From assembly GCF_027023865.1 (NCBI RefSeq), contig NZ_JALVUC010000019.1, positions 236,586 to 300,585 on the forward strand: a stretch of DNA of 64,000 nt, given 5' to 3'. Every line of letters starts with the position of its first letter. The stretch's first letter is position 1. This document shows positions 3,940 through 56,257 of this stretch, in pieces. Source of the stretch: Thermococcus sp. Lineage in GTDB: Archaea > Methanobacteriota_B > Thermococci > Thermococcales > Thermococcaceae. Position numbers and translations under genes: made by a program. Under the pieces are notes generated by a model. That model was not told the DNA's origin, ran no database searches, and was given only the letters and a program-made list of their open reading frames with translations.

Positions 3940-4539
3940 TAAGCATCACCTTCACCTTTTCCATCAGCATATCCATGACCTCGCCCGCCCGTCCACGGAT
4001 GAAGACGTCGGCTATCGGTGTTATCCCACTCCGTTTGGTGTTCACCTCGATTACCCTGCCGCCGTGCTCCTTAACGATCTGGGGGATGTATGCTGCTGGA
4101 TAAACGATGCCGCTCGTTCCAATGACGAGAACGAGGTCCGCACTCCTGGCCAGCTTAAAAGCTTCCTCCAGCGCCTTTTTCGGAAGTGGCTCGCCGAACC
4201 ATACAACGTCTGGCCTTAGAAGGGAACCACAGCGCGGACACTCTGGGAGACCTCTCTCATTTAGGGACTCCTCCAGACGATCACTCTCCTTAAGATTCTC
4301 CGTGTAGGAGCAGGAAGTGCACCTAACGCGGAAGATGTTTCCGTGAAGATCCATCACGTTCCTGCTCCCTGCCTCGCGGTGCAGGTCGTCGACGTTCTGC
4401 GTTATCACTGCCGTCAGAATCCCCATCCTCTCGAGTTCTGCAAGGGCATAGTGAGCCGGGTTCGGCTTTGCTTTCATTACCAGGTTCATCCTCCACTTCT
4501 GACCTCCTTCCCGCCGTGAAGGGCGAGGGTTCCAACGAA

Positions 4540-42204: not shown

Positions 42205-42714
42205 ATGTTCGGGTACAGGAGAAAGCTTGATATGGGCCTCAAGGAGGCCGAGGAGAAGTTTAAGGCAAAGCTTGAGGAGAGAGCCTACAGGGTCGTGATG
42301 GAATTCACGCCGAGCGACGTCGTTAAGGCCAAGCTCGGCGTTGAGATGGAGCCCTACAGGCTGCTCTACGTCTGCAACCCGAAGAAGTTCTACGACATGA
42401 CCAAGGTCGAGTACGAGATCGGCTCCTTCGCCCCGTGCCCGATGCTCCTTTACGAGAAGGACGGCGAAGTATACATCGCGATAAACACGGCCGAGGACAT
42501 TGTTGACGTTATCAGGGACGCGCTCGAGGATGTCAAAGCGGCCATTGAGGAGCCTTCATGGTCCTTTCCTTTTATTCTTGCCCCCCTCATAAAAAGGCAA
42601 ACAAAAGAGAAAGGCTCAGGTAACCCTTTCCAGCCCGTCCTTCCTTATTATGTAGGTATCCTCGTGCTTTATCGCCCCCTCAGGAATCATCAATGGGGGG
42701 TGGATGATGCTTAA
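42205..42714 (+). CDS. DUF302 family protein; natural stop apparently lost near 42555
   Basis: YRLLYVCNP, GSFAPC; the ORF tail crosses a T-rich tract into the convergent gene. Confidence 0.7.
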   Translation: MFGYRRKLDMGLKEAEEKFKAKLEERAYRVVMEFTPSDVVKAKLGVEMEPYRLLYVCNPKKFYDMTKVEYEIGSFAPCPMLLYEKDGEVYIAINTAEDIVDVIRDALEDVKAAIEEPSWSFPFILAPLIKRQTKEKGSGNPFQPVLPYYVGILVLYRPLRNHQWGVDDA

Positions 42715-43692
42715 CACCATATTCTCCTGAACCTTTTCAGCCCTCGTCTGCACTATTATCGTCGGCATAGGCGGTTCCTCAACGAGTAACCCAACTCCAT
42801 GGGTATACCCGGTGAGGTAGGCGTCACCAAAGCCTTTCTCCTTGAAGAAGTCGGCGAGCTTCTTCTCGACTGTGCTCAGAGTTGCCCCGACCTTCGTCTC
42901 CTCCAGGGCGAGCTTCAGGGCTTCCTCCTTAACCTCTAGTGCCTTTTTAACCCTCTCCCCCGGGTCTCCGACCACGAAGGTCCTGGCTGTATTGGAGTAG
43001 TAGTGGTTCCAGTCCGTCCCTATGACTACCGTTACAACGCCGTTCTCCTTAACCTTAAGATCCCTAAACGGCTCTGCATGAGCCCTGGGTGTGGTTGAGA
43101 CGTAGACCTTTGGATCCTCGCTCCCGTTGAGCATTAACTCCCTGACGACTTCAGCCGCTATCTCCAGTTCGCTCTTCCCCGGCGCTATTGTTTCTTCCGC
43201 GACCTTCATGCCCCTTTGAGCTATCTTTCCAGCCTTCCTGATGTTCTCAAGCTCCCAGCCGTCCTTTATCATCCTCAGACTCATGGTGAGGTTTAGGACG
43301 TCAACAACCTCCACAACGGGGTTTAACTTCTTGAAGAGATTGAGGAAGAAGGTATAGGCATCTCTCTCGACGCTGAACTCGTGGCCAACCCTCGTAAAGC
43401 CGTTCGTGGCTACCCACGTCACGATTCCGGCCATTAAATCTTCGGCGCGTTGGTATTCCTCTACGTTCTCTACCCAGCTTTTCTCCCTGAAAAGCTCTGC
43501 CTCGCCCTTGACGACGTAGACAGTCGGCTCGCCCTCTGCTGGGATGAGAAGGCTTGGGCGGAGCCATTTCGTCCCCGTAAAGTAGATGAAAGTGGAGAGG
43601 GTTCTTATAACTGCCCCGTCTATGTCGTTCTCCCTGAGGAGTTCCTGGAAGCGTTCAACCCTTTTCCTGAATATCTCCTCTTTTCCCCTCAT
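42616..43692 (-). CDS. M24 (Xaa-Pro) aminopeptidase family
   Basis: ARTF, HGVGL..EE.P, HP, KHEDT. Confidence 0.9.
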   Translation of the reverse strand: MRGKEEIFRKRVERFQELLRENDIDGAVIRTLSTFIYFTGTKWLRPSLLIPAEGEPTVYVVKGEAELFREKSWVENVEEYQRAEDLMAGIVTWVATNGFTRVGHEFSVERDAYTFFLNLFKKLNPVVEVVDVLNLTMSLRMIKDGWELENIRKAGKIAQRGMKVAEETIAPGKSELEIAAEVVRELMLNGSEDPKVYVSTTPRAHAEPFRDLKVKENGVVTVVIGTDWNHYYSNTARTFVVGDPGERVKKALEVKEEALKLALEETKVGATLSTVEKKLADFFKEKGFGDAYLTGYTHGVGLLVEEPPMPTIIVQTRAEKVQENMVLSIIHPPLMIPEGAIKHEDTYIIRKDGLERVT

Positions 43693-45035
43693 TCCAATTC
43701 CTCCCAGTCTATCAGTCTCTTTTCACCCTCTATCTTTTTATACGGTGCGATGTCCATCGTCATCTCAAGTGTCCCGATGTATTCGCCCCTCTCATTGAAG
43801 AGAGGAACATATTTGATGTAGACGTACTTCTTCCCGAGATGGAGCCAGAAAGTGGCTTCCTTCTTCCTGCCCTCCTTAAAGGCCTGGAGTATCTTGTTCA
43901 CAATGTAAACACTCTTCGGTGGGTGGCAGAGCTGGACCGGTCTTCCAAGGACTGAGAGCGTTCTGTCGAATATCCTCTCTCCCGGCGAGAAGAACCTCAC
44001 GCGGTCGTCCTTGTCTATAAAGGTAACGTCCATCGGCAGGGCCTCGAAGATGATCTTAAGCTCCTCGACATTAACGTAGCCTGTCCCGAGGTCTATGTCG
44101 CCATCGCGCTTGAGTTCCGTTTTATCAAACTCAAGAGGCTGACCTTTGAGGGCTTCCTGAACTTCCTTCGGGAGGCTCAGTAGCTGTTCTACGCTCAGCT
44201 CCGGGTTGATCTCCCATGGGTGGAGCGGTTTAACATCCTCACCGGGATCCCAAGCTGGCGGATCCACCTTATAGTAACCCATCTCGTCCTCCTGCATTCT
44301 AATGGCCTTCCACTCGCCGTCGCTTAGCAGGGCCTTGAGTGTTGGGTAGTATATGTTGTTCTCCCTAAAAACCATATCGTTGAGGGCGAAGGATGCCTCG
44401 CCGGCTTTGTCCTTGAAGAGCTTAACGAACTCCTCCCAAGGCATTTCGTTCCTCTTCCTCAGGAGTTCGGCAAGGTACTTTATCATAAATCTTACCTCGT
44501 CGTGCTTCGTCCAGAGAACGGTGGCCACCGCTGTAATACCCCTCCGTTCAATATATGGAAATGTCAGCATCTCCTCTCGGTTGTAGTGGGTGAAGCCGAC
44601 TTTTCTGAGGTTGTTGACTATCTCCTCCAGGACACCCAGGATTTCTTCCCTCATGCGCTCGTCATTGGTAGTTGTCAGTGTTCTCGCGTATAGGCTGAGC
44701 ATTTCGGAGTCCTTCATTATCTCCTTGTTCTCGAGATAGAGGGTCTTGAGTGGGTGGCCGTCCGGCAAATCCCTCTCCTCAAGTTCATCGGTTCCTTTAA
44801 CTGCCTCCCGGAAAAGCTCAACGTGAATGTCGCACATCTTGGCTATGTCCTTTGCTGAAATCCCCTCTTGGACGAGCTCTTGTTCTATAATAGGTATTTC
44901 TAGAGGTGAGATGTTGCTTAGTAACCTTTTGAACTCCTCTTTGAGCTTTTCAACGCTCTCCCCCTCGTGAATCCTCAGTAGGATTTTTTTCAGTTGCTCC
45001 TTTTTATACTCCCTGTTGTTGAGTAATTCAGTCAT
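43689..45035 (-). CDS. DUF438 + hemerythrin-like + PAS domain protein
   Basis: GHPL, HYNREE..FP, H, REN.I.YP; PAS with CHPP. Confidence 0.85.
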   Translation of the reverse strand: MTELLNNREYKKEQLKKILLRIHEGESVEKLKEEFKRLLSNISPLEIPIIEQELVQEGISAKDIAKMCDIHVELFREAVKGTDELEERDLPDGHPLKTLYLENKEIMKDSEMLSLYARTLTTTNDERMREEILGVLEEIVNNLRKVGFTHYNREEMLTFPYIERRGITAVATVLWTKHDEVRFMIKYLAELLRKRNEMPWEEFVKLFKDKAGEASFALNDMVFRENNIYYPTLKALLSDGEWKAIRMQEDEMGYYKVDPPAWDPGEDVKPLHPWEINPELSVEQLLSLPKEVQEALKGQPLEFDKTELKRDGDIDLGTGYVNVEELKIIFEALPMDVTFIDKDDRVRFFSPGERIFDRTLSVLGRPVQLCHPPKSVYIVNKILQAFKEGRKKEATFWLHLGKKYVYIKYVPLFNERGEYIGTLEMTMDIAPYKKIEGEKRLIDWEELE

Positions 45036-45037
45036 CC

Positions 45038-46213
45038 TCACCCCTCCTTAACCTTTTTTATAAGGAGATCCGTCAGCCTGAGGAACTCGTTATAATCTCC
45101 AGCGCTGGGTCTTGCGTGGATGTCCAGGGTACCTATGAGTTCGAAGTTTAATCCTTTTAACATTTCTAAAAGGGCATCATTACTCTTTCCATACCATCCA
45201 TGGGAGCCGATCAACAATGCGTATTTAGCTGGTGGTCTAAGTGCTTTTACAAGATACGCCGCATAAACAGCTAGTGGATGGGCCCCTGCAAGGACGGTGG
45301 GTGCGGCAAGTACTATTGCCCTGGAATCCACAAGGTCTTTGGCGATATCGCCAATATCAGAACTCACAAGATCATAAACCTCAACCTCTATTCCCTCGGC
45401 GATTAAACGATCTGCAAGCTTCCTTGCAATCTCCTCATTGGTCCCATACATACTCACATACACTATGAGCACCTTCTCCTGCGTTTCGCCACGACTCCAT
45501 TTCTTGTGGGCATCTATTATCCTCTGTGGGTTCCGATATATTGGACCGTGGCTTGGAGCGATCATATCTACATCAAGCCCCTCAATCTTTTGAAGTGCCT
45601 TTCTCACCATGGATGAGAACGGCATCATTATCTCACCGAAGTACCGCTGGGCATGGACCATAATATCGGGTACTTCATCATCATAGAGTCCATCCGCGAT
45701 GTGAGCCCCAAAGAAGTCGCAAGTGAATAGTATCTTGTCTTCTAAGAGATAGGTGAACATCGTCTCAGGCCAATGCAACCAAGGAGCTTCTATAAACCTT
45801 AGTGTCTTTCCACCGAGGGAAACTTCGTCGCCTTCTCTAACAATGATTAACCTTTCATCAGGGAGGTCATAGTATGCCTTTGCAATTTCAGCCCCTTTCT
45901 TCGTTGTAACCACCGACACCTTCGTGTTTTGCTTCAAGATATAAGGGATAGCACCTGAATGATCAGGTTCTGCATGATTCATGATTATGTAATCTATATC
46001 CCCTAAATCAAGGACCTCATTTACTTTTTCTCCCAAGTTACCCTCAAAATCCTTATATACAGTGTCTATGAGGGCAGTTTTCTCATCTCCAACTATTAGA
46101 TAGGAGTTATAGGATGTCCCTCTAGGTAGGGAGATAAGGGCATCAAAAACCCTCCTGTTCCAATCTTTAGCGCCCACCCAATAAACCTTTGGGGATATCT
46201 CGACGGCTTTCAT
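45038..46213 (-). CDS. fprA: Flavodiiron protein (O2/NO reductase)
   Basis: GTSYNSY, HAEPDHSG, HWPE, CDFFGAH, PSHG, flavodoxin YVSMYG. Confidence 0.95.
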   Translation of the reverse strand: MKAVEISPKVYWVGAKDWNRRVFDALISLPRGTSYNSYLIVGDEKTALIDTVYKDFEGNLGEKVNEVLDLGDIDYIIMNHAEPDHSGAIPYILKQNTKVSVVTTKKGAEIAKAYYDLPDERLIIVREGDEVSLGGKTLRFIEAPWLHWPETMFTYLLEDKILFTCDFFGAHIADGLYDDEVPDIMVHAQRYFGEIMMPFSSMVRKALQKIEGLDVDMIAPSHGPIYRNPQRIIDAHKKWSRGETQEKVLIVYVSMYGTNEEIARKLADRLIAEGIEVEVYDLVSSDIGDIAKDLVDSRAIVLAAPTVLAGAHPLAVYAAYLVKALRPPAKYALLIGSHGWYGKSNDALLEMLKGLNFELIGTLDIHARPSAGDYNEFLRLTDLLIKKVKEG

Positions 46214-46225
46214 GTTATCATCTCC

Positions 46226-46239
46226 ATGACGAGTGTCAT
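46226..46239. promoter_or_regulatory. Operator palindrome ATGAC-GAGT-GTCAT (fprA promoter)
   Basis: Between TATA and RBS; same motif at 46289, 46802 and 55894. Confidence 0.7.
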
Positions 46240-46288
46240 ATACACATCTTATAAGTATTGCTGGTCATATTTGCTCAATAAAGTTTAT

Positions 46289-46302
46289 ATGCCGTACGTC
46301 AT
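46289..46302. promoter_or_regulatory. Operator palindrome ATGCC-GTAC-GTCAT (tusA-like gene promoter)
   Basis: Abuts TTTATA; one mismatch to the consensus. Confidence 0.6.
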
Positions 46303-46323
46303 ACCATAGATCGGTGGTGCAAA

Positions 46324-46800
46324 ATGATGCTCGATGTTAGGGGACTAAAGGCCCCACAACCCGCTGTTATGATAGTCGAGTCCCTCGGAAAGCTGAAAAC
46401 CGGAGATACACTTGAGGTGCTCGGTGATAAGCCCTTCGTTGATATGATACCGAAGCTTGAAGAAGCTGGTTACTCCATTGATATCAAGGAGATTGGCAAT
46501 TTCTTCGTGCTCAGGGTTACAAAAACTGAAAACTCGAAGGAGCTTAATGTGGAGGTCAAGGAGTGTGATGATGAACTTGATGAGATAACTGAGGAAACAA
46601 ACGTGGCCCAGCTATTGAAGGTCTATCCTGAATCCCTCAAGATCCTCGTAAAGTACGGTTTTTCGCCGCTTGAGAACCCCGAAATGAGAAAAACTTTAGC
46701 TAAGACAATAACCCTGGAAGGGGCCAAGAGACTCCTCGGGATGAGCGATGACAAATTCAAAGAGATGATGGCGGAGCTTAAGGCCCTTGAAAAACCTTAA
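46324..46800 (+). CDS. TusA/SirA-like domain + DUF1858-like domain protein
   Basis: LDVRGL..P.P (Cys of the CPxP motif absent); C-terminal QLLKVYPESLKILVKYGF. Confidence 0.7.
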   Translation: MMLDVRGLKAPQPAVMIVESLGKLKTGDTLEVLGDKPFVDMIPKLEEAGYSIDIKEIGNFFVLRVTKTENSKELNVEVKECDDELDEITEETNVAQLLKVYPESLKILVKYGFSPLENPEMRKTLAKTITLEGAKRLLGMSDDKFKEMMAELKALEKP

Positions 46801-46826
46801 ATATTCCACCCGTCATAATTGGAACC

Positions 46827-47237
46827 ATGAAGACCAACGCCTTTGAGGTGGCCTCGCGCTACGTCTACCCTTCACTCAGACGAAGGCTCGTTGAGCATCT
46901 CCGGGGGAGGGGTTTAAAACAGACTGAGATAGCGAAGCTACTCCACATAACTCAGTCCGCGGTTTCCCGTTATCTTAAGGAAGAACGCGGGAAGACGATA
47001 GATGTTTCTGCTTTTCCTGACATTGACAGAAAACTGGAAACGCTTGCCGAGAGGATAATCGCAGAGAGGCCCAGTGAGTACGAGATACACACCGAGCTCG
47101 TGAAACTCTCCCTTGAATTCCTTGGCAAAGGTTACGGATGCTCTTTTCATGCGGAGATTGATCCTGAAATAGATCCAAAAAAGTGTGGAGTCTGCCTTGA
47201 ACTTTTTGGAGAATCTCAATCGAACAACCGCTTGTAG
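46827..47237 (+). CDS. HTH transcriptional regulator (COG2522-like) with C-terminal Cys/His motif
   Basis: [19 protein letters not shown]; CSFH...CGVC. Confidence 0.8.
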
Positions 47238-48214
47238 GCGATGTAACCGTATCTTCTAAGTCCATCTCTCGGAATGAACCTCAGCGACGCGGAGTTTATG
47301 CAGTAGCGCTTTCCGGTTGGTGTTGGCTCGTTAAAGACGTGGCCTAAGTGGGAATCTGCGAATCTGCTCCTCACTTCCCTTCCGCATAGAAAGCCCTTGC
47401 ACTCATCAGCCTCGATAACTGCCCATTCTTCAAGCGGTTTGGTAAAGCTCGGCCAGCCCCTCCCCGAATCGTACTTATCGAGCGAGCTGAAGAGCGGCTC
47501 CCCCGAAACGATATCCACATAAATACCGTCCTCATAATTATCCCAGTACCCGTTCCTGAAAGGTGATTCAGTGTCGCCAAGCTGGGTCACTCGATACTGG
47601 AGTGGCGTTAAGAGGCTTTTAAGTTCCGAATCATCCGGCTTAACATAACCCAGCCAGTAGCGCTCCCTCTCCGGGAAGATTCTGAAGTAACGGTTCTTCT
47701 CCCAGGCCTCTTTGATGAAGTCAAGCCTTCCAGAATAGCGCTTGTAGTGTTTGTAGTTTGTCTCAAAGCGGAGGTAATAACTCTGGTGGTAGTCCTCGGC
47801 GGGATAGAACTCACTTGCAGGTAGAATCTCCGTGACTATCTGCCCTTTAAAGATTCCCGAGAGTTCAAGCCTCCGCCTGGACTCTTCCGCCAACTTCTTC
47901 TGTTCCTCATTGAAGTAGAATATTGCCGTCCTGTACTGCTCTCCCCTATCGGCGAACTGCCCTCCAGAGTCGGTGGGATCGATGTTCTTCCAGAAGACCT
48001 CCAAAAGACGTTCATAGGAAATCTTCTCTGGGTCGTAGATCACCTTAACTGCCTCGCGGTGACCGGTCTCACCCGTGGAGACCAGCTCGTAAGTTGGGTT
48101 CTCAAGTTGGCCACCGGTGTAGCCCGAGACCGCTTCAATGACCCCGGGCAGTCTCTCAAAGGCCTCCTCCATGCACCAGAAGCAGCCACCGGCGAATATG
48201 ACAACCTCCTTCAT
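47216..48214 (-). CDS. msrAB: Bifunctional methionine sulfoxide reductase A/B
   Basis: GCFWC, GHREAV, YHQ.Y; [14 protein letters not shown]. Confidence 0.96.
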
Positions 48215-48378
48215 TTACAACACCGTATAAAACCCAAAGCGGGAAGTGATTAATCTTTAGGTTCGGAGTGATAATCCCTGGAAGGTGATGGGGCCAATGG
48301 AGACACCCCAAGGTTTAGAAAACCATATATACCGGGTAGGCTCAATTCATGTCGCAGTACACTCTTTGGTGGTTGGAG

Positions 48379-48894
48379 ATGGCCGTTAAGAGGAAAATGA
48401 CCCGGAAGTTTCTTGAAGATGCTTTTGCGGGCGAAAGCATGGCCCACATGAGGTACCTGATCTTTGCCGAGCAGGCGGAGAGGGAAGGCTTTCCGAAAAT
48501 AGCGAAGCTCTTCAGAGCCATTGCGTATGCCGAGTTCGTCCATGCGAAGAACCACTTCATAGCCCTTGGGAACCCTGGCAAGACTCATGAGAACCTCCAA
48601 GCGGGAATTGACGGTGAGACCTACGAGGTCGAGGAGATGTATCCGGTCTTCAAGAACGTCGCCGAGTTCCAGGGGGAGAAGGAAGCCGTCAGGACGACAT
48701 ATTATGCCCTTGAGGCCGAGAAGATACACGCCGAGCTCTACGCGGAGGCCAAGGAGAAGGCTGAGGAGGGCGAAGACATTGAGATAAAGAAGGTCTACAT
48801 CTGTCCGGTCTGCGGTTACACTGCGGTGGATGAGGTCCCCGACCGCTGCCCGATATGCGGAACGCCAGGGGAGGAGTTTATAGTCTTTGAATGA
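48379..48894 (+). CDS. rbr: Rubrerythrin
   Basis: AFAGES.A, E..HA, C-terminal CPVCGY...CPICG. Confidence 0.95.
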   Translation: MAVKRKMTRKFLEDAFAGESMAHMRYLIFAEQAEREGFPKIAKLFRAIAYAEFVHAKNHFIALGNPGKTHENLQAGIDGETYEVEEMYPVFKNVAEFQGEKEAVRTTYYALEAEKIHAELYAEAKEKAEEGEDIEIKKVYICPVCGYTAVDEVPDRCPICGTPGEEFIVFE

Positions 48895-48974
48895 TTCTTT
48901 TGTTTTTCCACTTCACAGGTTTGAACCACAAACCTTATAAGGACGACTTAATAACACCAAGTAGGTGAAAGAAA

Positions 48975-49136
48975 ATGGCAAAGTGGAAGTGCATAGTCTG
49001 TGGGTATGTCTATGATGAAGACGAGGGTGACCCCAACAGCGGGATGGAACCCGGCACCAAGTTTGAAGACCTGCCCGAGGACTGGGTCTGCCCGCTCTGT
49101 GGCGCTCCTAAGGACATGTTTGAAAGGATAGAGTGA
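48975..49136 (+). CDS. rub: Rubredoxin (53 aa, missing from the ORF track)
   Basis: [20 protein letters not shown]...[14 protein letters not shown]. Confidence 0.97.
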
Positions 49137-49146
49137 GGTGGTTGAG

Positions 49147-49494
49147 ATGCTTAGCGGAACCATAAAGAGTGGAGACTGGAAAGGGGAGAAGCACGTCCCC
49201 GTTATAGAGTACGAGAAGGATGGCGACCTTGTCAAGGTCGAGGTCAGCGTCGGCAAGGAGATACCCCACCCGAACACTCCGGAGCACCACATCGCCTGGA
49301 TACAGCTCTGGTTCCACCCAGAGGACGGAGCCTTCCCAATACTCGTCGGCAAGGTCGAGTTCAGCAACCACAGCGACCCGCTGACCGAGCCTAGGGCTGT
49401 CTTCTTCTTCAGGACCGAGGAGAAGGGCAAGCTCTACGCCCTCAGCTACTGCAACATCCACGGCCTCTGGGAGAACGAGGTTCAGCTCGAGTGA
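49147..49494 (+). CDS. sor: Superoxide reductase (1Fe, neelaredoxin type)
   Basis: EKHVP, HPNTPEHHI, CNIHG. Confidence 0.97.
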   Translation: MLSGTIKSGDWKGEKHVPVIEYEKDGDLVKVEVSVGKEIPHPNTPEHHIAWIQLWFHPEDGAFPILVGKVEFSNHSDPLTEPRAVFFFRTEEKGKLYALSYCNIHGLWENEVQLE

Positions 49495-49580
49495 TTTTTA
49501 TTCTCTCTTTTCCTTTACCCCATAGGTAGGTTTATTAACCGCCGGAGGGACTCTCTCTATCTTCGCTGGTGATGGTTAAA

Positions 49581-50180
49581 ATGGAAGCGTATTTTCAGAT
49601 CATGACCTTTGGGGGTGTTCTATCCCTTTTGGGCATATTCCTGACTTGGAATTTGGCGAGAATCGTTGAACACCGCCATCTTCGGAAGAAAGGTCTTTCA
49701 TGGCTGGTTCTTGTCGGAGGACTTGTGACTGCCGCAGGGTTTTTACCTGGAGCCTCCTCTGGCGGGGATGCCATTGAATGGGCCATACTCCTCGGCCCGG
49801 TTCTCATAGGCTACGCCCTCTCGGAAAGCGGTCTCGTCAGGGCGAACATAGAGATGCTCCTCCAGACGGCGGTTGTGGGCATGGCCCTGGTTCTCGGTGG
49901 GGGAAGCCGAACCCTCGTGGTTGAGTCGTTCTCTGTCGTCTCGACTCTGCTCCTCATAAATGCGCTTGCCTTCTACATGTACATACCCTCCTGGGTCTCA
50001 CGGGTTCCCAGGACCGCGGCATGGATTTTCATGACCTTCTTTCTCCTGAACGCGATTTACGGCGGCGACTTCTACGTGTCACTGCTCTATCTACTCTCAC
50101 AGCTCCTCTGGATCTCAGCCCTTATCCGCCTCCATCTGGCGGATGGTGTGCTTCACACTTCTGCCCAGGAAGGCTTATAA
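49581..50180 (+). CDS. Hypothetical polytopic membrane protein
   Basis: Multiple hydrophobic segments; no recognised motif. Confidence 0.6.
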   Translation: MEAYFQIMTFGGVLSLLGIFLTWNLARIVEHRHLRKKGLSWLVLVGGLVTAAGFLPGASSGGDAIEWAILLGPVLIGYALSESGLVRANIEMLLQTAVVGMALVLGGGSRTLVVESFSVVSTLLLINALAFYMYIPSWVSRVPRTAAWIFMTFFLLNAIYGGDFYVSLLYLLSQLLWISALIRLHLADGVLHTSAQEGL

Positions 50181-50212
50181 CCGTGCACTCTTAAAAAAGA
50201 ACGGTGAGAAAA

Positions 50213-50572
50213 ATGAAGGTTTACATACCAGACCGTGAGTGGCCGGAGCACTACAAGCCGGTCCTTGAAGAGCTTGCCAGGGTAACCGACCCCGTCACCG
50301 GGGGGGACGTCTTGGACTCGGGCATCATAGCCGGACTGGAGGTTGCGGAAGACACGCTCAAGGTCTGGCTCAACTTCGAAAGCCATGCAGAGTACAATAT
50401 AACTGGCGAGAGCGCGATAGCCTACTCCAAGATAATCGGCGACATAATGGAGCGCTTCGCCCTCATAAGGTTCCAGAACGTCTACGTCTACGACCTTAAG
50501 AACAACATTGTCGGCATCTTTGAGAACAAGAAGGGCTACAAATGGGAGGACATAAGCGCGGAGAGGGCCTGA
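50213..50572 (+). CDS. DUF59/MIP18 (Fe-S assembly) domain protein
   Basis: L..VTDPVTG.DV...GII. Confidence 0.75.
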   Translation: MKVYIPDREWPEHYKPVLEELARVTDPVTGGDVLDSGIIAGLEVAEDTLKVWLNFESHAEYNITGESAIAYSKIIGDIMERFALIRFQNVYVYDLKNNIVGIFENKKGYKWEDISAERA

Positions 50573-50573
50573 G

Positions 50574-50954
50574 ATGGGACTTCTCGGCATCTTCAAAAAA
50601 CCCGCCAAAAGGCCGAAGAGGGGTCCCAGGGAAGATCTCCCCCCGGAGGTAAAGCGGGTCGTTGAGGTTCTCCGCTCCGTTAAGGATCCCGAAACGGGGC
50701 TTGACATAGTGGACGAGGGTCTGCTCTATGGGCTCACCGTCGAAGGTGGCAAGGCTCAGGTCTTCCTCCTTCTCGCCCGCTCAACACCCAAATGCCACTT
50801 CTGCCAGATGCTGGCGATAAACGTCCAAAGGGGAATTCTAAGGGATATCGTTGAGGTTCTGCGGAAGGAAGGGTTTAAGAGGATTGAAGCGTATAACGAA
50901 ATCGGGCTTCTGCTCGAAGAATGGGGTGATGAAGATGGTTCCACCGGAGCTTGA
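50574..50954 (+). CDS. DUF59/MIP18 (Fe-S assembly) domain protein with CxxC
   Basis: VKDPETGLDIVDEGLLY; TPKCHFC. Confidence 0.85.
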   Translation: MGLLGIFKKPAKRPKRGPREDLPPEVKRVVEVLRSVKDPETGLDIVDEGLLYGLTVEGGKAQVFLLLARSTPKCHFCQMLAINVQRGILRDIVEVLRKEGFKRIEAYNEIGLLLEEWGDEDGSTGA

Positions 50955-51459
50955 GGAGGGACTCCCCCTCGAGAGGGTTAAGGAGTTCTCACTTGAGGAG
51001 CTTTTGGGGATGGCTGTAAAGGCCGAAATTGGGGCAAGGAACTTCTATGAAAGCCTTGCTGAGAGGATAGAGATAAAGGAACTTAAGAACAAGATAACGT
51101 GGCTCGCAGGAGAGGAGAAGAAGCACGAAGAACTTCTGAGGAGGATTTACGCCAACACCTTCCCTGGGAAGGAGATCGTCTTCCCCAAGGAGCACATAGG
51201 GCCGGAGCTTCAGCCGGTAGTAAGGCAGCTTCATGGTGTTGAGGACATAATAGAGCTGATCAGGTGGGCCATGAAGGCCGAGGAGATGGCGGCTAAGTTC
51301 TACGCCGAGCTTGAGAAGATGGTTGACACCGAGGAGAAAAAGCGCCTAATGCGCTACCTCAGCGACATGGAGTGGGGTCACTACTACAACCTCAAGGCCG
51401 AGTATGAACTCCTCCTCGACTGGGCAATGTACAGCCAGATGATGAACGTCGGGCCGTGA
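50935..51459 (+). CDS. Ferritin-like (rubrerythrin-fold) protein
   Basis: MAVKAE..A..FY, EE.KH, second repeat AE...FY...E.GH. Confidence 0.85.
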   Translation: MVPPELEEGLPLERVKEFSLEELLGMAVKAEIGARNFYESLAERIEIKELKNKITWLAGEEKKHEELLRRIYANTFPGKEIVFPKEHIGPELQPVVRQLHGVEDIIELIRWAMKAEEMAAKFYAELEKMVDTEEKKRLMRYLSDMEWGHYYNLKAEYELLLDWAMYSQMMNVGP

Positions 51460-51506
51460 GGCCTTATCTTCTTCCGTTTTTGAAAAGTTAAAGCAGAGAG
51501 AAGAGG

Positions 51507-51950
51507 TCACTCCGTGTACTCTGCTATCAGTTTCGCTAGGAGCCTGTGGTGTTCCCTCTCGTTCTCCACTATTGCCTCTGCCAATCCTCTAAAGAGTGGG
51601 TGGGTCATCTTCTCCGCCATCTTCTGATAGGTATCTATCATATCCTTCTCTATATCGAGATGCATCTCTGCGAAGCGCTTCACCAGGGCCTTCTGCTCGG
51701 GGGAAAGCTCAACGTCTCTAACCTCCGAGAGTGGCCCCTCGCCGGCGAGCTTCTCAAGCTCCTTCTGCGCATCGAGGATTGCTTCCATAAGATGCTTGTG
51801 GATGACGGTGTCAACGGCTATCCTTCCGACTATCTCCTCAACCTTTGTATACCTCAATCCCTGCCCCCGTATGAGTCCTAAACCGTCGGTATAGCTGGAG
51901 GCAGCCTTCTTTTCGGTTTCATAGGCGTGTTTAACGAGTGGTTCAGACAT
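51507..51950 (-). CDS. Ferritin-like (rubrerythrin-fold) protein
   Basis: E.KAA..Y, DT..H, IE....Y, NEREHH. Confidence 0.75.
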   Translation of the reverse strand: MSEPLVKHAYETEKKAASSYTDGLGLIRGQGLRYTKVEEIVGRIAVDTVIHKHLMEAILDAQKELEKLAGEGPLSEVRDVELSPEQKALVKRFAEMHLDIEKDMIDTYQKMAEKMTHPLFRGLAEAIVENEREHHRLLAKLIAEYTE

Positions 51951-52015
51951 AGACATCACCGTAGTTATGTGTGCCATTAAGCCTAATAATGATTTCCCTT
52001 GAACAAAGGAAAGGG

Positions 52016-52318
52016 TCAAAGATTGACCTTTATCCCGGTTTCCTCTTCAACTTCCCCAAAGCCTTCCTTCATGTACTTTGCGAGTTCTTCATCGACCTCG
52101 AAGAGCGCCGCAAGGAACTCCCCGAAGTGCTCCTTCTCCTCGTTTGCAACATCGTGGAAGATACCTTTTATCCTCTCGTCTTCAATACCGGTAGCTAACT
52201 GCTCGTAGATGCTCATAGCATCAAGCTCAGCTTCGATAGCCCAGCGGAGGGCCTGTGCTATCTCGGTCTTGGTTAGGGGCCTGTCCTTGGGGAGTTCAAA
52301 CGGATATTTGGCCAACAT
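52016..52318 (-). CDS. Encapsulated-ferritin (EncFtn/Flp)-like protein, stand-alone
   Basis: AIEAELDA..IYEQ, VANEEKEHFGEF; 100 aa. Confidence 0.85.
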   Translation of the reverse strand: MLAKYPFELPKDRPLTKTEIAQALRWAIEAELDAMSIYEQLATGIEDERIKGIFHDVANEEKEHFGEFLAALFEVDEELAKYMKEGFGEVEEETGIKVNL

Positions 52319-52378
52319 GGTATCACCACTATCAACTCACTTTCTTCTTCCCTAATAATGTTTCTCTTTTGAAAAGCC

Positions 52379-52930
52379 TCACCTGAGGAACTTCGAGACG
52401 CAGGGGCTTTCACCTGGTTTACTCCTCCGGAAGTGGCCGCTCGGCTTTCCGGTCAGAAGCTCCTCGAACCAAGCCTCGTGTTCTATCTCCTCGTGGAGGA
52501 TGGCCAGAGAAAGGTCATAGGTCCTTGGGTCTTTGCCCATCGTGTAGTTGCATATCTCCGTGTAGACACCGACGGCACAGCGCTCCGCCTGGAGGAGAAC
52601 CTTCAGTATCTCCTCAACGGTCGGGTTCTCGGGCAGGTAGGCGTCGCTGCACCAGGCCATCTTTGAGAAGTCCACAATGTCCCTGGAGAGCTCCCCACCG
52701 AGTTCGTATATCCTAGGCACAAGGACTTCGAAGTGATTCCTGTCCTCAAGGCGGGCATCTTCAATGATTTCTTTTATTGTTTCACCGTCCATACCCGCTG
52801 CGTGGTTCCTTAGAATCGTGTAGTAGTAATAGGTTGTAAACTCAGCCGCGGCCGCCTTCAGTAGCATATCCAAAAGTTTCTCAACGTCTATACCGGCTCG
52901 CTTCACGAGCCGTCTGTTGTGTTCTGACAT
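52379..52930 (-). CDS. dpsL: Dps-like protein (thioferritin type)
   Basis: [35 protein letters not shown]. Confidence 0.92.
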
Positions 52931-52979
52931 AAGTTTCACCAATTTTGGTAGTTACTTATATTTAATAAACTTTTCTATT

Positions 52980-52994
52980 TAGAAATTATTTCTA
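52980..52994. promoter_or_regulatory. Perfect 7-1-7 inverted repeat TAGAAAT-T-ATTTCTA, candidate Fur/PerR operator
   Basis: Between the back-to-back dpsL and fur promoters. Confidence 0.65.
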
Positions 52995-53033
52995 TTTAGT
53001 AAGGCTTATAAAGACTTGGCCCTAACCTCAACC

Positions 53034-53417
53034 ATGTGGAAGGAAGAAGCCTTGGGGGAGCTCAGGAAAAACGGCTACAAACTCACGCCCCAGAGGTTGA
53101 AGCTCGTTGAGATGCTCGATGAAAAGGGGGCGGAGCATCCATCCCTCGGGGAAATGCTCGGAGAGATACGAAAGGTTTTCCCGACGATGAGCTTCTCGAC
53201 CCTCTACTCAAATGTCCTCATCTTGAGAGAACTTGGGCTGGTCGAGCTCTTCTCCCTCGGGGGTGAGACGAGGATTGAGATAAACACAGAACCCCATATC
53301 AACCTCATCTCCGGTAGAGAGATAATCGACATCGACGACCCCGATATAATCGAGGCCATAGTGCGGAAGACCGGAAAGAGAGTGAGGCTTGTAAACGTGC
53401 TCGTGGAGGATGAGTAA
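53034..53417 (+). CDS. fur: Fur/PerR-family regulator, probably leaderless
   Basis: GYKLTPQR, EHPS, SFSTLYSN, EPHINL; ATG about 28 nt after the first T of TTATAAA with no RBS. Confidence 0.88.
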   Translation: MWKEEALGELRKNGYKLTPQRLKLVEMLDEKGAEHPSLGEMLGEIRKVFPTMSFSTLYSNVLILRELGLVELFSLGGETRIEINTEPHINLISGREIIDIDDPDIIEAIVRKTGKRVRLVNVLVEDE

Positions 53418-53596
53418 TCTGGTGACGTAGTTGGCCGTGTTTAAAGTGGTTGATGGTTTCATGCAGGAGAAGTTAATCTGAAAAAATCAAATTAAAACTT
53501 TGAAGATTCCCTTAAAATCTGAAAAAAAGTTCGAAAGGCAAAATTTAATAACCCAGAATAACATAAAGACGTTCCAGAGGAAGGAGGTGAAAACAC

Positions 53597-54304
53597 ATGG
53601 CACAGCAATTTGAGGAGGTCGTCTTTGAATACTTGAAGAGCATTAAACCGGGGGAAGACATCCTAGTCGAGTTCACTTCCAACGAACCGATCCATCTTCT
53701 CCTTGACGTACTCCTTAGGTATCTCCACCGAGAGAACATCCCGGTGATAATCATTGACGTCCTTGATCACCTTAACATGTTCAAAGCCCAGCTAGGGGTA
53801 GTCGGGATAGATACAGCACTCCTCGAGAATGCTTACGTAGTAAAGATAGGTGGGCTGTCAAAAACTGGGAATGTTATGGGTGAAATTCCCCCCACAGAGG
53901 AGCTTCCAATTGGAGTTAAAAAGCTTCACGAACTTTTCAAAAAGGTTCCGGAAGACTTTGTTTTCAGGGTAACACTCGGGCTTGACAAACTCTTAAGGTA
54001 TTATGAAAAAGAGGGCTCCCTTGAAGCGTTCATGGGGCACTTAAGAAAAGATTCCGGCGAGAGTGGGAGGATAAGAGTATTCGCCGTGAACCGGGATATC
54101 GCTCCCGAAGAGGCTCTTAGTGAGATGAGAGAACTTGCTTCAAGGGTCTTTGATGTTGAGCTTGAGGAAGGGAGAATAAAGTTGACTATTGTCAAGTCTC
54201 CAAACTTCGCGGAGTACGGGGAGAAACTCACAGTGTTCGCCGCGGGACTCCAGGGTCACCTGCGAGACCAGAGAGAGGTAAGCGACAACTTGATCCTGAC
54301 GTAG
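53597..54304 (+). CDS. DUF257-like Thermococcales protein
   Basis: GEDILVEFTS.EP, IIDVLD.L, VVKIGG; family assigned by resemblance. Confidence 0.7.
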   Translation: MAQQFEEVVFEYLKSIKPGEDILVEFTSNEPIHLLLDVLLRYLHRENIPVIIIDVLDHLNMFKAQLGVVGIDTALLENAYVVKIGGLSKTGNVMGEIPPTEELPIGVKKLHELFKKVPEDFVFRVTLGLDKLLRYYEKEGSLEAFMGHLRKDSGESGRIRVFAVNRDIAPEEALSEMRELASRVFDVELEEGRIKLTIVKSPNFAEYGEKLTVFAAGLQGHLRDQREVSDNLILT

Positions 54305-54505
54305 AGCTATGTTTCTGTCTCAATCCATTTTGTTAGTAGGTTGCAGGAAGGGAATTAAGCGTAGCCGTTGGGCAGGTAATACTGTACCTCAAACGTGGAA
54401 GGATGAAAACACCGTTTAGGATAGCTTAATGTGGGTGAGTTTCGGGGTCAGGTGGTTCAACCTGCCGGGGGGCTGTTCTTAAAAGTTGAAAAAATTAAGG
54501 AAAAA

Positions 54506-55879
54506 TCAGTCGAGAAGGGGAGAATCCTCACTGACGGCAGTTGTTGAGTTGAGCATTCTCTTCAGGTCCTCCTCCGGCTCACCTATGGGCCTGAGGTCAA
54601 ACTTCTTCCTGATGGTCTCAAGGACGTTTGGTGTGAAGAACTCCGGAGCCTTTGGACCAAGGTAGATGCCCTTAATCCCGAGGTAGAACAGGCTGTAAAG
54701 GATTCCTACTGCCTTCTGCTCCATCCAGCTGAGGACTATGCTCACCGGGAGGTCGTTGAGGCCGACATCAAGTTTCCTCGCGAGTGCTCCTGCAATCTGG
54801 ATTATGGAATAGACGTTGTTGCATTGGCCGAAGTCCATAAAGCGGGGTATTCCCTCTATCTCACCGTAGTCGCGCCTGTTGTAACGGAACTTACCGCACG
54901 CGGCCGAGAGGATTATGGCATCCTTGGGGACCATCGCGGTGAGCTTCTCATAGTAGCTCATCTTCGGATTGGGGACGTCACAGCCGCCAATTACGAAGAC
55001 GTGCCTTATTTTGCCCTCGTTGATGAGTTCAATGAGCTTGTCCATCAAGGGGAGAACGTTGGTGTGGTGGAAGCCCGTAACTACGTGGCCATCTTCCTTT
55101 CTCTCCATCCTTGGGGTTTCAAGGGCGCGTTTGATTAGGGGCTCGTAGTCGTTTTCAAGGTGTGGAACACCTTCGAGACCCGCTATGTCAGTTGTGAACA
55201 TCCTGTCGGCGTAGCTCTTCGGTGGTTGTTGCACACAGTTGCTGGTTCCCAGTATGGCACCAGGAAACGCGGTGAACTCCTTCCTCTGGTAGACCCAGGA
55301 ACCGCCCCAGTTGCCGTAGAGGGACTTGAACTTCCTGAACTCTGGATAAGAGTGGGACGGAAGCATCTCCGAGTGGGTGTAAACTCTGATTTCATCCTCA
55401 AGTCCCATCTCCCTGATCTGTTTCAGTAGTTCATAAAGCGCCCGGTAAGTGTGGCCGGTTACGAGTATTCCATGTCCTTCGTCGGTTCCGGTTGGGACCT
55501 TAACCGGCTCCGGGTTTCCGTAGGTCTCGGTGTAGGCTTTATCAAGGAGTTCCATTGCTTTGAGGTGTATCCTTCCGTTCTCTAGGATAAGCTCAAGGAA
55601 GCGGTTTTTATCGAAGTTCACATTGGTGAGCGTTGAGTACAGGGCCTTGCTTAGGAAGAAGCCGATTTCACTGTCCTTATATCCTAACTCGTAGGCGTGG
55701 AAGTAATAGGCGGCAGTTCCCTTAATACCGTAGATAAGGGCCTCCTGAAGGGAGTTCAGGTCCGGATCCTTACCGCAGATGCCTCTAAGCGTACATCCCC
55801 CTGGCTGGCTCATGGAGCATTGGTCACACCTCATTAAAATTCCTGCCTCTTTTCCATTCTTTGGAACCTTCGCGGCCAT
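54506..55879 (-). CDS. hcp: Hybrid cluster protein (hydroxylamine/NO reductase), short class III form
   Basis: C-x2-C-x7-C-x5-C, ILVTGH, YTHSEML, GGCD, ACGKFR, DFGQCN, SWMEQKA; 457 aa. Confidence 0.96.
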   Translation of the reverse strand: MAAKVPKNGKEAGILMRCDQCSMSQPGGCTLRGICGKDPDLNSLQEALIYGIKGTAAYYFHAYELGYKDSEIGFFLSKALYSTLTNVNFDKNRFLELILENGRIHLKAMELLDKAYTETYGNPEPVKVPTGTDEGHGILVTGHTYRALYELLKQIREMGLEDEIRVYTHSEMLPSHSYPEFRKFKSLYGNWGGSWVYQRKEFTAFPGAILGTSNCVQQPPKSYADRMFTTDIAGLEGVPHLENDYEPLIKRALETPRMERKEDGHVVTGFHHTNVLPLMDKLIELINEGKIRHVFVIGGCDVPNPKMSYYEKLTAMVPKDAIILSAACGKFRYNRRDYGEIEGIPRFMDFGQCNNVYSIIQIAGALARKLDVGLNDLPVSIVLSWMEQKAVGILYSLFYLGIKGIYLGPKAPEFFTPNVLETIRKKFDLRPIGEPEEDLKRMLNSTTAVSEDSPLLD

Positions 55880-55890
55880 ATTGTCACCTC

Positions 55891-55910
55891 CATATGACAC
55901 TTGTCATATG
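55891..55910. promoter_or_regulatory. Perfect 9-2-9 palindrome CATATGACA-CT-TGTCATATG (hcp operator)
   Basis: Directly 5' of the hcp RBS, downstream of TTTAAA at 55928. Confidence 0.75.
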
Positions 55911-56257
55911 AATATTGTGTCAATTTGTTTAAATCTTTTTCTCCATGAAACGTCATAGAAAAATTTATGAAAATCAAAACTCTGAAAAAAAGCCTTGATC
56001 GTTCTACGAGGCATAGATTGAACCATAAAAGGCTGATGGCCCTAGCCATCCGCTGTTTTTGAGTTATACTCCCTTACTCCAAAAGGCGTGTTTTTAGGAG
56101 AAAATGTGACGGGGAGAAGGGCCTTCCAGGAGATGAACTCCCATTCCCTCGTGGGTGAAACCCCCCACTATTCAATAGGAAGATGACATCGAGTACCAGT
56201 ATCTCAGCTTTCATAATCCACGTGTCCTGGTGCTCGTCGTGGGTTCCCTGTAGTCCT

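Follow-up and report, generated by a model that had tools for sequence, protein, structure and literature searches.

To our knowledge, the sensing of nitric oxide (NO) and nitrosative stress by archaea is essentially unknown. In bacteria, hcp, the hemerythrin-type genes dnrN/ytfE and flavorubredoxin form the core of the NsrR, HcpR and NorR regulons, and the 2005 reconstruction of the bacterial NO regulons gave the archaeal hcp genes no regulator (PMC1274295). Here, a stretch of 64,000 nucleotides from Thermococcus sp. was analysed (contig NZ_JALVUC010000019.1, positions 236,586 to 300,585; the whole stretch is referred to as the window), in which the promoters of hcp, of the flavodiiron gene fprA, of a TusA/DUF1858 fusion gene and of the gene for a 136-residue helix-turn-helix (HTH) protein carry the same 16-bp dyad, TATGAC-N4-GTCATA. 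The 136-residue protein is probably a homodimeric, autoregulated repressor of these four genes that is released by modification of a metal-thiolate site. At the level of sequence the pairing of regulator and operator, and repression as the mode of action, appear well supported; NO as the signal we infer from a gene content that resembles that of the bacterial NsrR, HcpR and NorR regulons.

NsrR is a bacterial repressor of the Rrf2 family that senses NO with a [4Fe-4S] cluster. It resembles the proposed archaeal regulator in being a repressor of small size that forms a homodimer and binds its metal through Cys residues and one other ligand, in acting at an inverted-repeat operator over the promoter, and in controlling a compact regulon of hcp, ytfE/dnrN and NO-detoxifying enzymes (PMC1274295, PMC4432287). 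The archaeal protein differs from it in its unrelated fold, in the spacing of its ligands, which are candidates only, in its operator and in the TATA/TFB type of promoter. The Rrf2 domain (PF02082) gave no match in the regulator, and the best match in the genome, located elsewhere, scored 20 bits, under the cut-off of 30 bits. HcpR, a CRP/FNR-type protein, is usually encoded beside and divergently from hcp, and its predicted regulon holds hcp together with ferredoxin- and hemerythrin-like genes. The HcpR1 operator TTGAC-N4-GTCAA (PMC1274295) has the core TGAC-N4-GTCA in common with the archaeal dyad but differs in the flanks, and the common core is most simply explained by convergence. HcpR is an activator-type protein of about 230 residues with an N-terminal cNMP-like sensor, whereas the archaeal regulator has its HTH at the N-terminus, and the archaeal hcp operator is positioned downstream of the TATA box. 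A cNMP-binding domain was found neither in the regulator nor anywhere in the genome. Archaea lack sigma-54, on which NorR depends, and of the NorR architecture (GAF, AAA+ sigma-54 and HTH domains) the HTH alone was detected in the 136-residue regulator. The regulator belongs to none of the bacterial families of NO regulators (Rrf2, CRP/FNR, NorR), and the statement of the initial annotation that no regulator of the NsrR, HcpR or NorR type can be recognised holds, as neither an Rrf2 protein nor one with a cNMP-binding domain is encoded in the genome.

Two archaeal regulators are also relevant for comparison. MsvR (methanogens; flavodiiron fpaA operon) combines an ArsR-type HTH with a V4R domain, and SurR (Thermococcales) is of the ArsR type, has its CxxC motif within the DNA-binding domain and recognises GTTn3AAC. 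Like the system proposed here, both are archaeal, show a Cys-dependent redox response, act at palindromes overlapping promoters of stress or electron-flow genes, are autoregulated and are divergently encoded. In contrast, the 136-residue regulator gave no match to the V4R domain, and the SurR motif is likewise absent. The sole recognisable homolog of the regulator with a proposed function is a 300-residue HTH-ThiN paralog (contig C3:133089-133991 of the window's genome, G000; ThiN PF10120 3e-45), which appears in most Thermococcales genomes as a weak second match of the ortholog search. ThiR-type archaeal regulators (HTH plus ThiN) reportedly control a thiamine regulon. The N-terminal DNA-binding region is homologous: about 115 residues of the paralog align to the whole regulator (hhalign probability 97.2%, E 3.4e-11, 28% identity, 110 columns). 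The paralog, identified as ThiR-like by its domain architecture only, differs in lacking two of the four Cys/His ligands discussed below, in its regulon and in its ThiN ligand domain, which is absent from the 136-residue regulator. A limited literature search, which is not proof of absence, found no description of the regulator, of a role for COG2522, of the motif or of a comparable archaeal stress regulon. A metal-thiolate stress repressor acting at a palindrome over hcp or flavodiiron protein (FDP) genes is known in bacteria; what is new is the protein family, together with its operator and the archaeal setting of the promoters.

The dyad searched for was TATGAC-N4-GTCATA (16 bp). TATA boxes and transcription starts were predicted from the sequence, assuming the usual archaeal spacing with the centre of the TATA box about 26–27 nt upstream of +1. 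The four operators in the window are:

46225-46240: fprA operator, CATGACGAGTGTCATA (minus-strand reading TATGACACTCGTCATG)
46288-46303: TusA/DUF1858 operator, TATGCCGTACGTCATA (TATGCC-GTAC-GTCATA)
46802-46817: the regulator's own operator, TATTCCACCCGTCATA (TATTCC-ACCC-GTCATA)
55893-55908, with arms 55891-55910: hcp operator, TATGACACTTGTCATA (TATGAC-ACTT-GTCATA)

The genes that they would serve, directly or as part of an operon, are:

42616-43692, minus strand: M24/creatinase-like protein (Pfam Peptidase_M24 and Creatinase_N)
43689-45041, minus strand: DUF438-hemerythrin-PAS protein, PF0695 ortholog (Pfam; PDB 3CAX, E=1e-212)
45038-46213, minus strand: flavodiiron protein FprA, PF0694 ortholog (Pfam ODP/Lactamase_B/Flavodoxin)
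46324-46800, plus strand: fusion of a TusA-like (Cys-less) part and DUF1858, PF0693 ortholog (Pfam)
46827-47237, plus strand: regulator of 136 residues, PF0691 ortholog (COG2522), with an XRE-like HTH at the N-terminus and a Cys/His module at the C-terminus
54506-55879, minus strand: hybrid cluster protein (Hcp), short class III-type, PF0692 ortholog (Pfam Prismane 3.4e-111)

The four dyads were found where the initial annotation had placed them, starting at 46225, 46288, 46802 and 55893, and its assignment of the regulator to COG2522 is borne out, since the P. furiosus ortholog PF0691 is listed under that entry. The fprA operator begins 7 nt 3' of the predicted TATA box CTTATAAG (46248-46255) and extends to the predicted +1, and the operator of the TusA/DUF1858 gene overlaps the predicted TATA box TTTATATG (46284-46291). 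At the regulator gene, the predicted TATA box TTAAATAT (46797-46804) runs with its 3' end into the left half of the operator, and the last base of the operator is 9 nt ahead of the ATG, which itself is at the predicted +1. The mRNA of the regulator is probably leaderless, because the distance from TATA box to ATG is about 26 nt and the ATG coincides with the predicted +1. At hcp, the predicted TATA box ATTTAAAC (55927-55934) is 18 nt upstream of the operator, which spans the predicted transcription start, with the Shine-Dalgarno (SD) sequence GGAGGTG just downstream. The hcp dyad had been described as a perfect 20-bp palindrome. The two arms of 9 bp are perfect (CATATGACA / TGTCATATG), but the CT at the centre is non-complementary, which gives 18/20 overall; the identity of 13/14 between the cores of the fprA and hcp operators was reproduced. 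Judged by sequence, the hcp operator would be the best of the set and the regulator's own the weakest, so the targets would be shut tightly while the regulator would limit its own synthesis only at high concentration.

Conservation of the operator was assessed in 99 Thermococcales species genomes, about 73 of which contain a full-length ortholog of the regulator; 30 regulator loci and 30 hcp loci were fetched. The motif, which the initial annotation had seen in one genome, is present upstream of the orthologs in both sets. At the regulator loci (30/30), TATTCC-N4-GTCATA is located 25 nt ahead of the ATG and abuts a conserved B recognition element (BRE)/TATA box; upstream of the BRE/TATA the sequence varies with the neighbouring gene. 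At hcp (30/30), the SD sequence is directly preceded by a site that has no more than one mismatch; the half-sites are perfect in 28 of the 30. Here the spacer and the flanks drift around invariant half-sites, and the site is still present in the three genomes in which hcp is unlinked from the regulator (G000, G007, G030). In more than 20 genomes, the divergent promoter between fprA (or the DUF438 gene) and TusA has a pair of operators at a spacing of exactly 63 bp, the TusA operator being conserved as TTTATATG(C/T/A)C-N4-GTCATA. In P. furiosus, the regulator (PF0691), hcp (PF0692), PF0693, PF0694 and PF0695 are contiguous and have five sites. Where the cluster is dispersed, in the Pyrococcus-like genomes G007, G010, G011 and G012, the DUF438-hemerythrin gene alone retains the operator. 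The most conserved target of the fprA-side promoter is the DUF438-hemerythrin-PAS gene and not fprA.

Co-occurrence was evaluated in 80 high-quality Thermococcales genomes. Regulator and hcp are both present in 47 of these, the regulator without hcp in 19, neither gene in 14, and hcp without the regulator in none (Fisher 5e-7). Genomes with the regulator have on average 4.8 dyads (at most one mismatch) versus 1.5 in those without, and the corresponding numbers for a control pattern are 2.4 and 1.7. In the genomes that lack the regulator no ortholog of FprA was found; only the housekeeping FDP (about 30–33% identical) is kept, and no operator was found there. Similarly, no operator was found upstream of the lone DUF438 gene in one regulator-less genome (G019). 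Two further genomes (G085:C7:30129-30978 and G086:C2:38392-39239) retain only neighbouring pseudogene fragments of the regulator and of the DUF438-hemerythrin gene, which looks like joint decay of a regulator and its target. The initial annotation had pointed to the 46827-47237 protein as the most simple candidate for the dyad-binding repressor. The protein is by far the best candidate, because its own promoter has the site in every lineage examined and because the targets and the excess of the motif are found only together with the regulator; its binding to the DNA is predicted from these patterns.

The regulator is also found beyond the Thermococcales. A scan of species-representative genomes yielded relatives in Desulfurococcales, other Thermoproteota, a metagenome-assembled genome (MAG) of Thermofilaceae and Candidatus Njordarchaeum (Asgard), and homologs from Pyrodictium and Pyrolobus are present in the protein database. 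Outside the Thermococcales, the same dyad recurs at the promoters of regulator genes whose products are about 47–60% identical, and these loci also carry it at an adjacent hcp, DUF438-hemerythrin or M24-like gene; at one non-Thermococcales locus (L126) no site was seen. Versions of the own-promoter operator that are closer to the consensus than that of the window are found at Desulfurococcales and Asgard loci. In three Desulfurococcales loci, L122 (4500-5600), L124 (4482-5591) and L125, an M24-like ortholog adjoins the regulator behind a perfect operator. In two MAGs of Desulfurococcales/Thermoproteota (L118 and L119), Hcp is 77–80% and the regulator 57–61% identical to the Thermococcus proteins. 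The level of identity of Hcp across phyla suggests horizontal spread of a self-contained hcp-regulator cassette, with recent transfer between phyla.

Pfam detected a weak HTH_3 (25.4 bits, cut-off 23) and a weak HTH_5 (23.8 bits) match in the regulator, overlapping each other, and NCBIfam likewise yielded weak generic HTH matches only. The protein database names the homologs 'transcriptional regulator' or members of the ArsR/XRE family. An AlphaFold (AF2) model of the protein is all-helical (pLDDT 87.9); a Foldseek search of the PDB with this model gave no match below E=1, and only the HTH resembles XRE proteins. The recognition helix, I-T-Q-S-A-V-S-R-Y, is near-invariant, with Q43, A45, V46, S47, R48 and Y49 as invariant residues. 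Also invariant are the residues C105, H108, D112, C120 and C123 of the C-terminal module, C105-x2-H108-x3-D112-x7-C120-x2-C123 (C-x2-H-x11-C-x2-C), whereas E84, Y85 and H88 are conserved solely in the hcp-linked subfamily. An exhaustive profile search returned 1,320 representatives, among them 224 at E<1e-10; lengths of 120–140 residues predominate, and those few with an annotation are archaeal. Ligand conservation was assessed in 137 distant representatives of the family. The pattern CH(D/E)CC is found in 101 of the 137, the residues C105, C120 and C123 are each present in at least 132, and position 108 is His in 122 and Cys in 11. Exchange of His for Cys is typical behaviour of a metal ligand, and the near-invariant series C, H or C, C, C has the signature of a four-ligand metal site; the Cys3-His module is predicted to bind metal.

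In the mechanism that we propose, the HTH of each subunit would read one TATGAC half-site of TATGAC-N4-GTCATA; the centres of the half-sites are 10 bp apart, equal to one helical turn, and the best consensus is TATGACA-YR-TGTCATA. The bound repressor would block TBP/TFB binding or the recruitment of RNA polymerase at four promoters: those of hcp, of the operon of fprA with the DUF438-hemerythrin-PAS and M24-like genes, of the TusA-DUF1858 gene and of the regulator itself. Repression is the expected mode because the predicted TATA boxes overlap the operators or shortly precede them, and the operators cover the predicted transcription starts. In the archaeal systems that have been characterised, binding in this region leads to repression, usually by a block of TBP/TFB or RNA polymerase. 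The C-x2-H-x3-D-x7-C-x2-C module would hold a redox- or NO-labile metal centre, for which we lean somewhat towards an Fe-S cluster, with a Zn-thiolate site as a possible, less favoured occupant. Nitrosylation or oxidation of the centre would release the regulator from the DNA and thereby induce the detoxification and repair genes.

The NO reading is based on the fact that hcp, the hemerythrin-domain protein, the DUF1858 protein and the accessory FDP correspond to the core of the NO regulons of bacteria; the neighbouring genes for the handling of reactive oxygen species (ROS) and the housekeeping FDP are outside the regulon. Tentatively, the PF0691-type proteins could be the first NO-responsive archaeal transcription factors, a new family whose Cys3-His(+Asp) Fe-S centre, attached to an XRE-like HTH, would be nitrosylated to free a TATA-proximal operator, and whose cassette would have spread horizontally over hyperthermophiles of three phyla (Thermococcales, Desulfurococcales/Thermoproteota and Njordarchaeia). 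In P. furiosus under standard growth, the regulon genes are weakly expressed (baseMean 34–119), and upon copper shock PF0692-PF0695 show a small parallel rise (PMC7830388, supplementary file 3). The low basal expression is compatible with repression but not diagnostic. No RNA runs with the window sequence were found, the sequence being present only in hydrothermal-vent DNA metagenomes.

The proposal gives a precise hypothesis that is cheap to test: it names a single small protein (PF0691 of P. furiosus, a genetically tractable species), a single operator of 16 bp and five or six targets, several of which have no known function (the DUF438-hemerythrin-PAS protein of 3CAX, TusA/DUF1858 and the M24-like protein). 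If true, it would define a new family of metal-dependent sensors, provide a physiological context for these DUF proteins and for the archaeal class III Hcp, and yield a tightly repressed, inducible promoter/operator pair for the genetics of hyperthermophiles.

Several points weigh against this interpretation. No binding, expression or metal-content data were found for any member of the family, and the TATA boxes and transcription starts at the operators are predictions. The co-occurrence statistics ignore phylogenetic non-independence, and the whole-genome count of the motif, taken for one genome alone, is not significant. The C-x2-H...C-x2-C pattern is widespread as a structural zinc motif, and family members with possibly unrelated regulons keep it as well; the Cys/His module therefore need not be the sensor. 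At least one further input is implied by another conserved dyad of the fprA/TusA promoter (see below). Finally, Thermococcales flavodiiron proteins have a known role as O2 reductases, and links of Hcp to peroxide and hydroxylamine have been described, so that the signal could be O2 or general redox state rather than NO.

The last point leads to the alternative in which regulator, operator and repression are the same but the signal is O2, ROS, a thiol/redox shift or the iron/zinc status, the regulon being an accessory module for exposure to oxygen. It would fit the location of the locus within an island of oxidative-stress genes: between the regulator locus and hcp lie genes for MsrAB, rubrerythrins, superoxide reductase (SOR), a Dps-like ferritin and a Fur-family protein. 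It would also fit the established O2 reductase function of FDPs in anaerobic archaea, the tendency of Fe-S and Zn-thiolate sensors to respond to O2 and NO alike, and the slight joint increase of P. furiosus PF0692-PF0695 upon copper shock, which is a thiol/redox stress. Yet none of these ROS genes of the window (SOR, rubrerythrins, Dps-like, MsrAB, Fur-like) has the dyad, the universal housekeeping FDP paralog is not part of the regulon, and the conserved core (hcp, hemerythrin-domain, DUF1858) resembles the bacterial NO regulons and not those for peroxide or superoxide. On balance we consider a signal other than NO less likely, but a serious alternative.

The repressor proposed here would act on more genes than the initial annotation had listed: the genes named there would belong to the regulon, and so would the DUF438-hemerythrin-PAS and M24/creatinase-like genes. 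The DUF438-hemerythrin-PAS gene overlaps the stop of fprA and is translationally coupled to it; the structure of PF0695 has been solved (PDB 3CAX) and its function is uncharacterised. The start of the M24-like gene overlaps the DUF438 stop, and for this reason the gene is probably the third of the fprA operon and co-transcribed with the other two. That an M24-like protein is a conserved part of the regulon was unexpected. FprA scores as flavorubredoxin-like in NCBIfam, under the cut-off, and is about 31% identical to the second FDP of the genome (contig C3), making FprA an accessory paralog. Hcp matches the NCBIfam hydroxylamine reductase model TIGR01703 (633 bits); its start is the ATG at 55879 and not the GTG at 55900. 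For the TusA/DUF1858 protein the Pfam scores are 1.2e-17 (DUF1858), 3.8e-10 (TusA) and 3.9e-5 (DUF2249), and the DUF1858 part is matched by PDB 2FI0. The TAA stop of its gene (46798-46800) sits within the TATA box of the regulator promoter, so that the regulator could be transcribed by read-through as well as from its own leaderless promoter.

The promoter between fprA and the TusA/DUF1858 gene contains a further element, midway between the two divergent TATA boxes and degenerate in the window:

46262-46277: second dyad, TGGTCA-TATT-TGCTCA (TGGTCATATTTGCTCA)

In other loci (L007, L010, L029, L065, L070 and others) its consensus is TGGGCA-N4-TGCCCA, and P. furiosus has TGGACA-N4-TGTCCA, a compensatory change. 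As a genome-wide motif, TGGGCA-N4-TGCCCA is not supported in the window's genome; the second dyad is possibly a site for another factor. That other factors probably act at this promoter bears on the alternative in which TATGAC-N4-GTCATA is read by a different, unlinked factor and the adjacent HTH protein is a mere member of the regulon or regulates something else. This is very unlikely: across the 99 genomes the regulator gene and the operator are gained and lost from the record together, outside the phylum they are met as a compact cassette that has no second regulator among its conserved neighbours, and the site at the regulator's own promoter is universal.

A third site, with the fixed spacer TTAT (TATGACTTATGTCATA), is highly conserved in the spacer between hcp and the regulator gene (L008, L009, L026; P. 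furiosus L032 5925). It precedes both TATA boxes, at a distance of 51 bp from the operator of the regulator and of about 80 bp from that of hcp, and may point to cooperative binding or looping. Its position, found in many genomes, would also be compatible with activation, that is with a protein that binds the dyad as an activator or dual regulator and, for example, recruits TFB/TBP once modified. At all four promoters, however, the primary site lies on the predicted TATA box or behind it and extends over the predicted start, and basal expression in P. furiosus is low; activation by the 136-residue protein is accordingly improbable, about as much so as reading of the dyad by an unlinked factor.

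The single-genome statistics of the motif are modest, and the reality of the operator rests decisively on its conservation in orthologous promoters. Within the window, six matches were found at up to two mismatches versus 1.09 expected, a number reached in none of 100 shuffles. In the 1.92-Mb genome, the four matches with at most one mismatch are within the range of composition-matched permuted dyads (n=179), which average 2.6 matches and do as well in 47 cases; the genome-wide count was for this reason rejected as evidence. Non-coding sites, however, number three among the four matches, versus 0.46 expected, and only 2 of the 179 permuted dyads reach three. That the repeated dyad is a chance or generic promoter feature without a dedicated factor, as the genome-wide count by itself would allow, is in effect already refuted by its conservation in 30/30 and 30/30 orthologous promoters with variable flanks and fixed geometry and by its restriction to one functional gene set in dependence on the regulator.

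A few additional sites were considered. The two extra matches in the window, at 4403 and 43021, are both within coding sequence and were judged to be due to chance. A position weight matrix made from the orthologous sites found no further strong site in the 1.92-Mb genome; the matches at C19:139819 and C25:6654 of the same genome may be due to chance, and so may a site located in an integrase region (L039) and one within coding sequence of a Methanofastidiosa-like genome (L047). Two closely related Pyrococcus-like genomes contain TATGACACATGTCATC in the AT-rich spacer upstream of orc1/cdc6, in the oriC region (L034 3056, L037 3088); this may be chance or a real extra site. In one genome (G012), a site with one mismatch (L041 3098) lies between a gene for a 120-residue EncFtn-like/rubrerythrin-like protein and a hydrogenase maturation protease-like gene, and possibly marks a lineage-specific member of the regulon.

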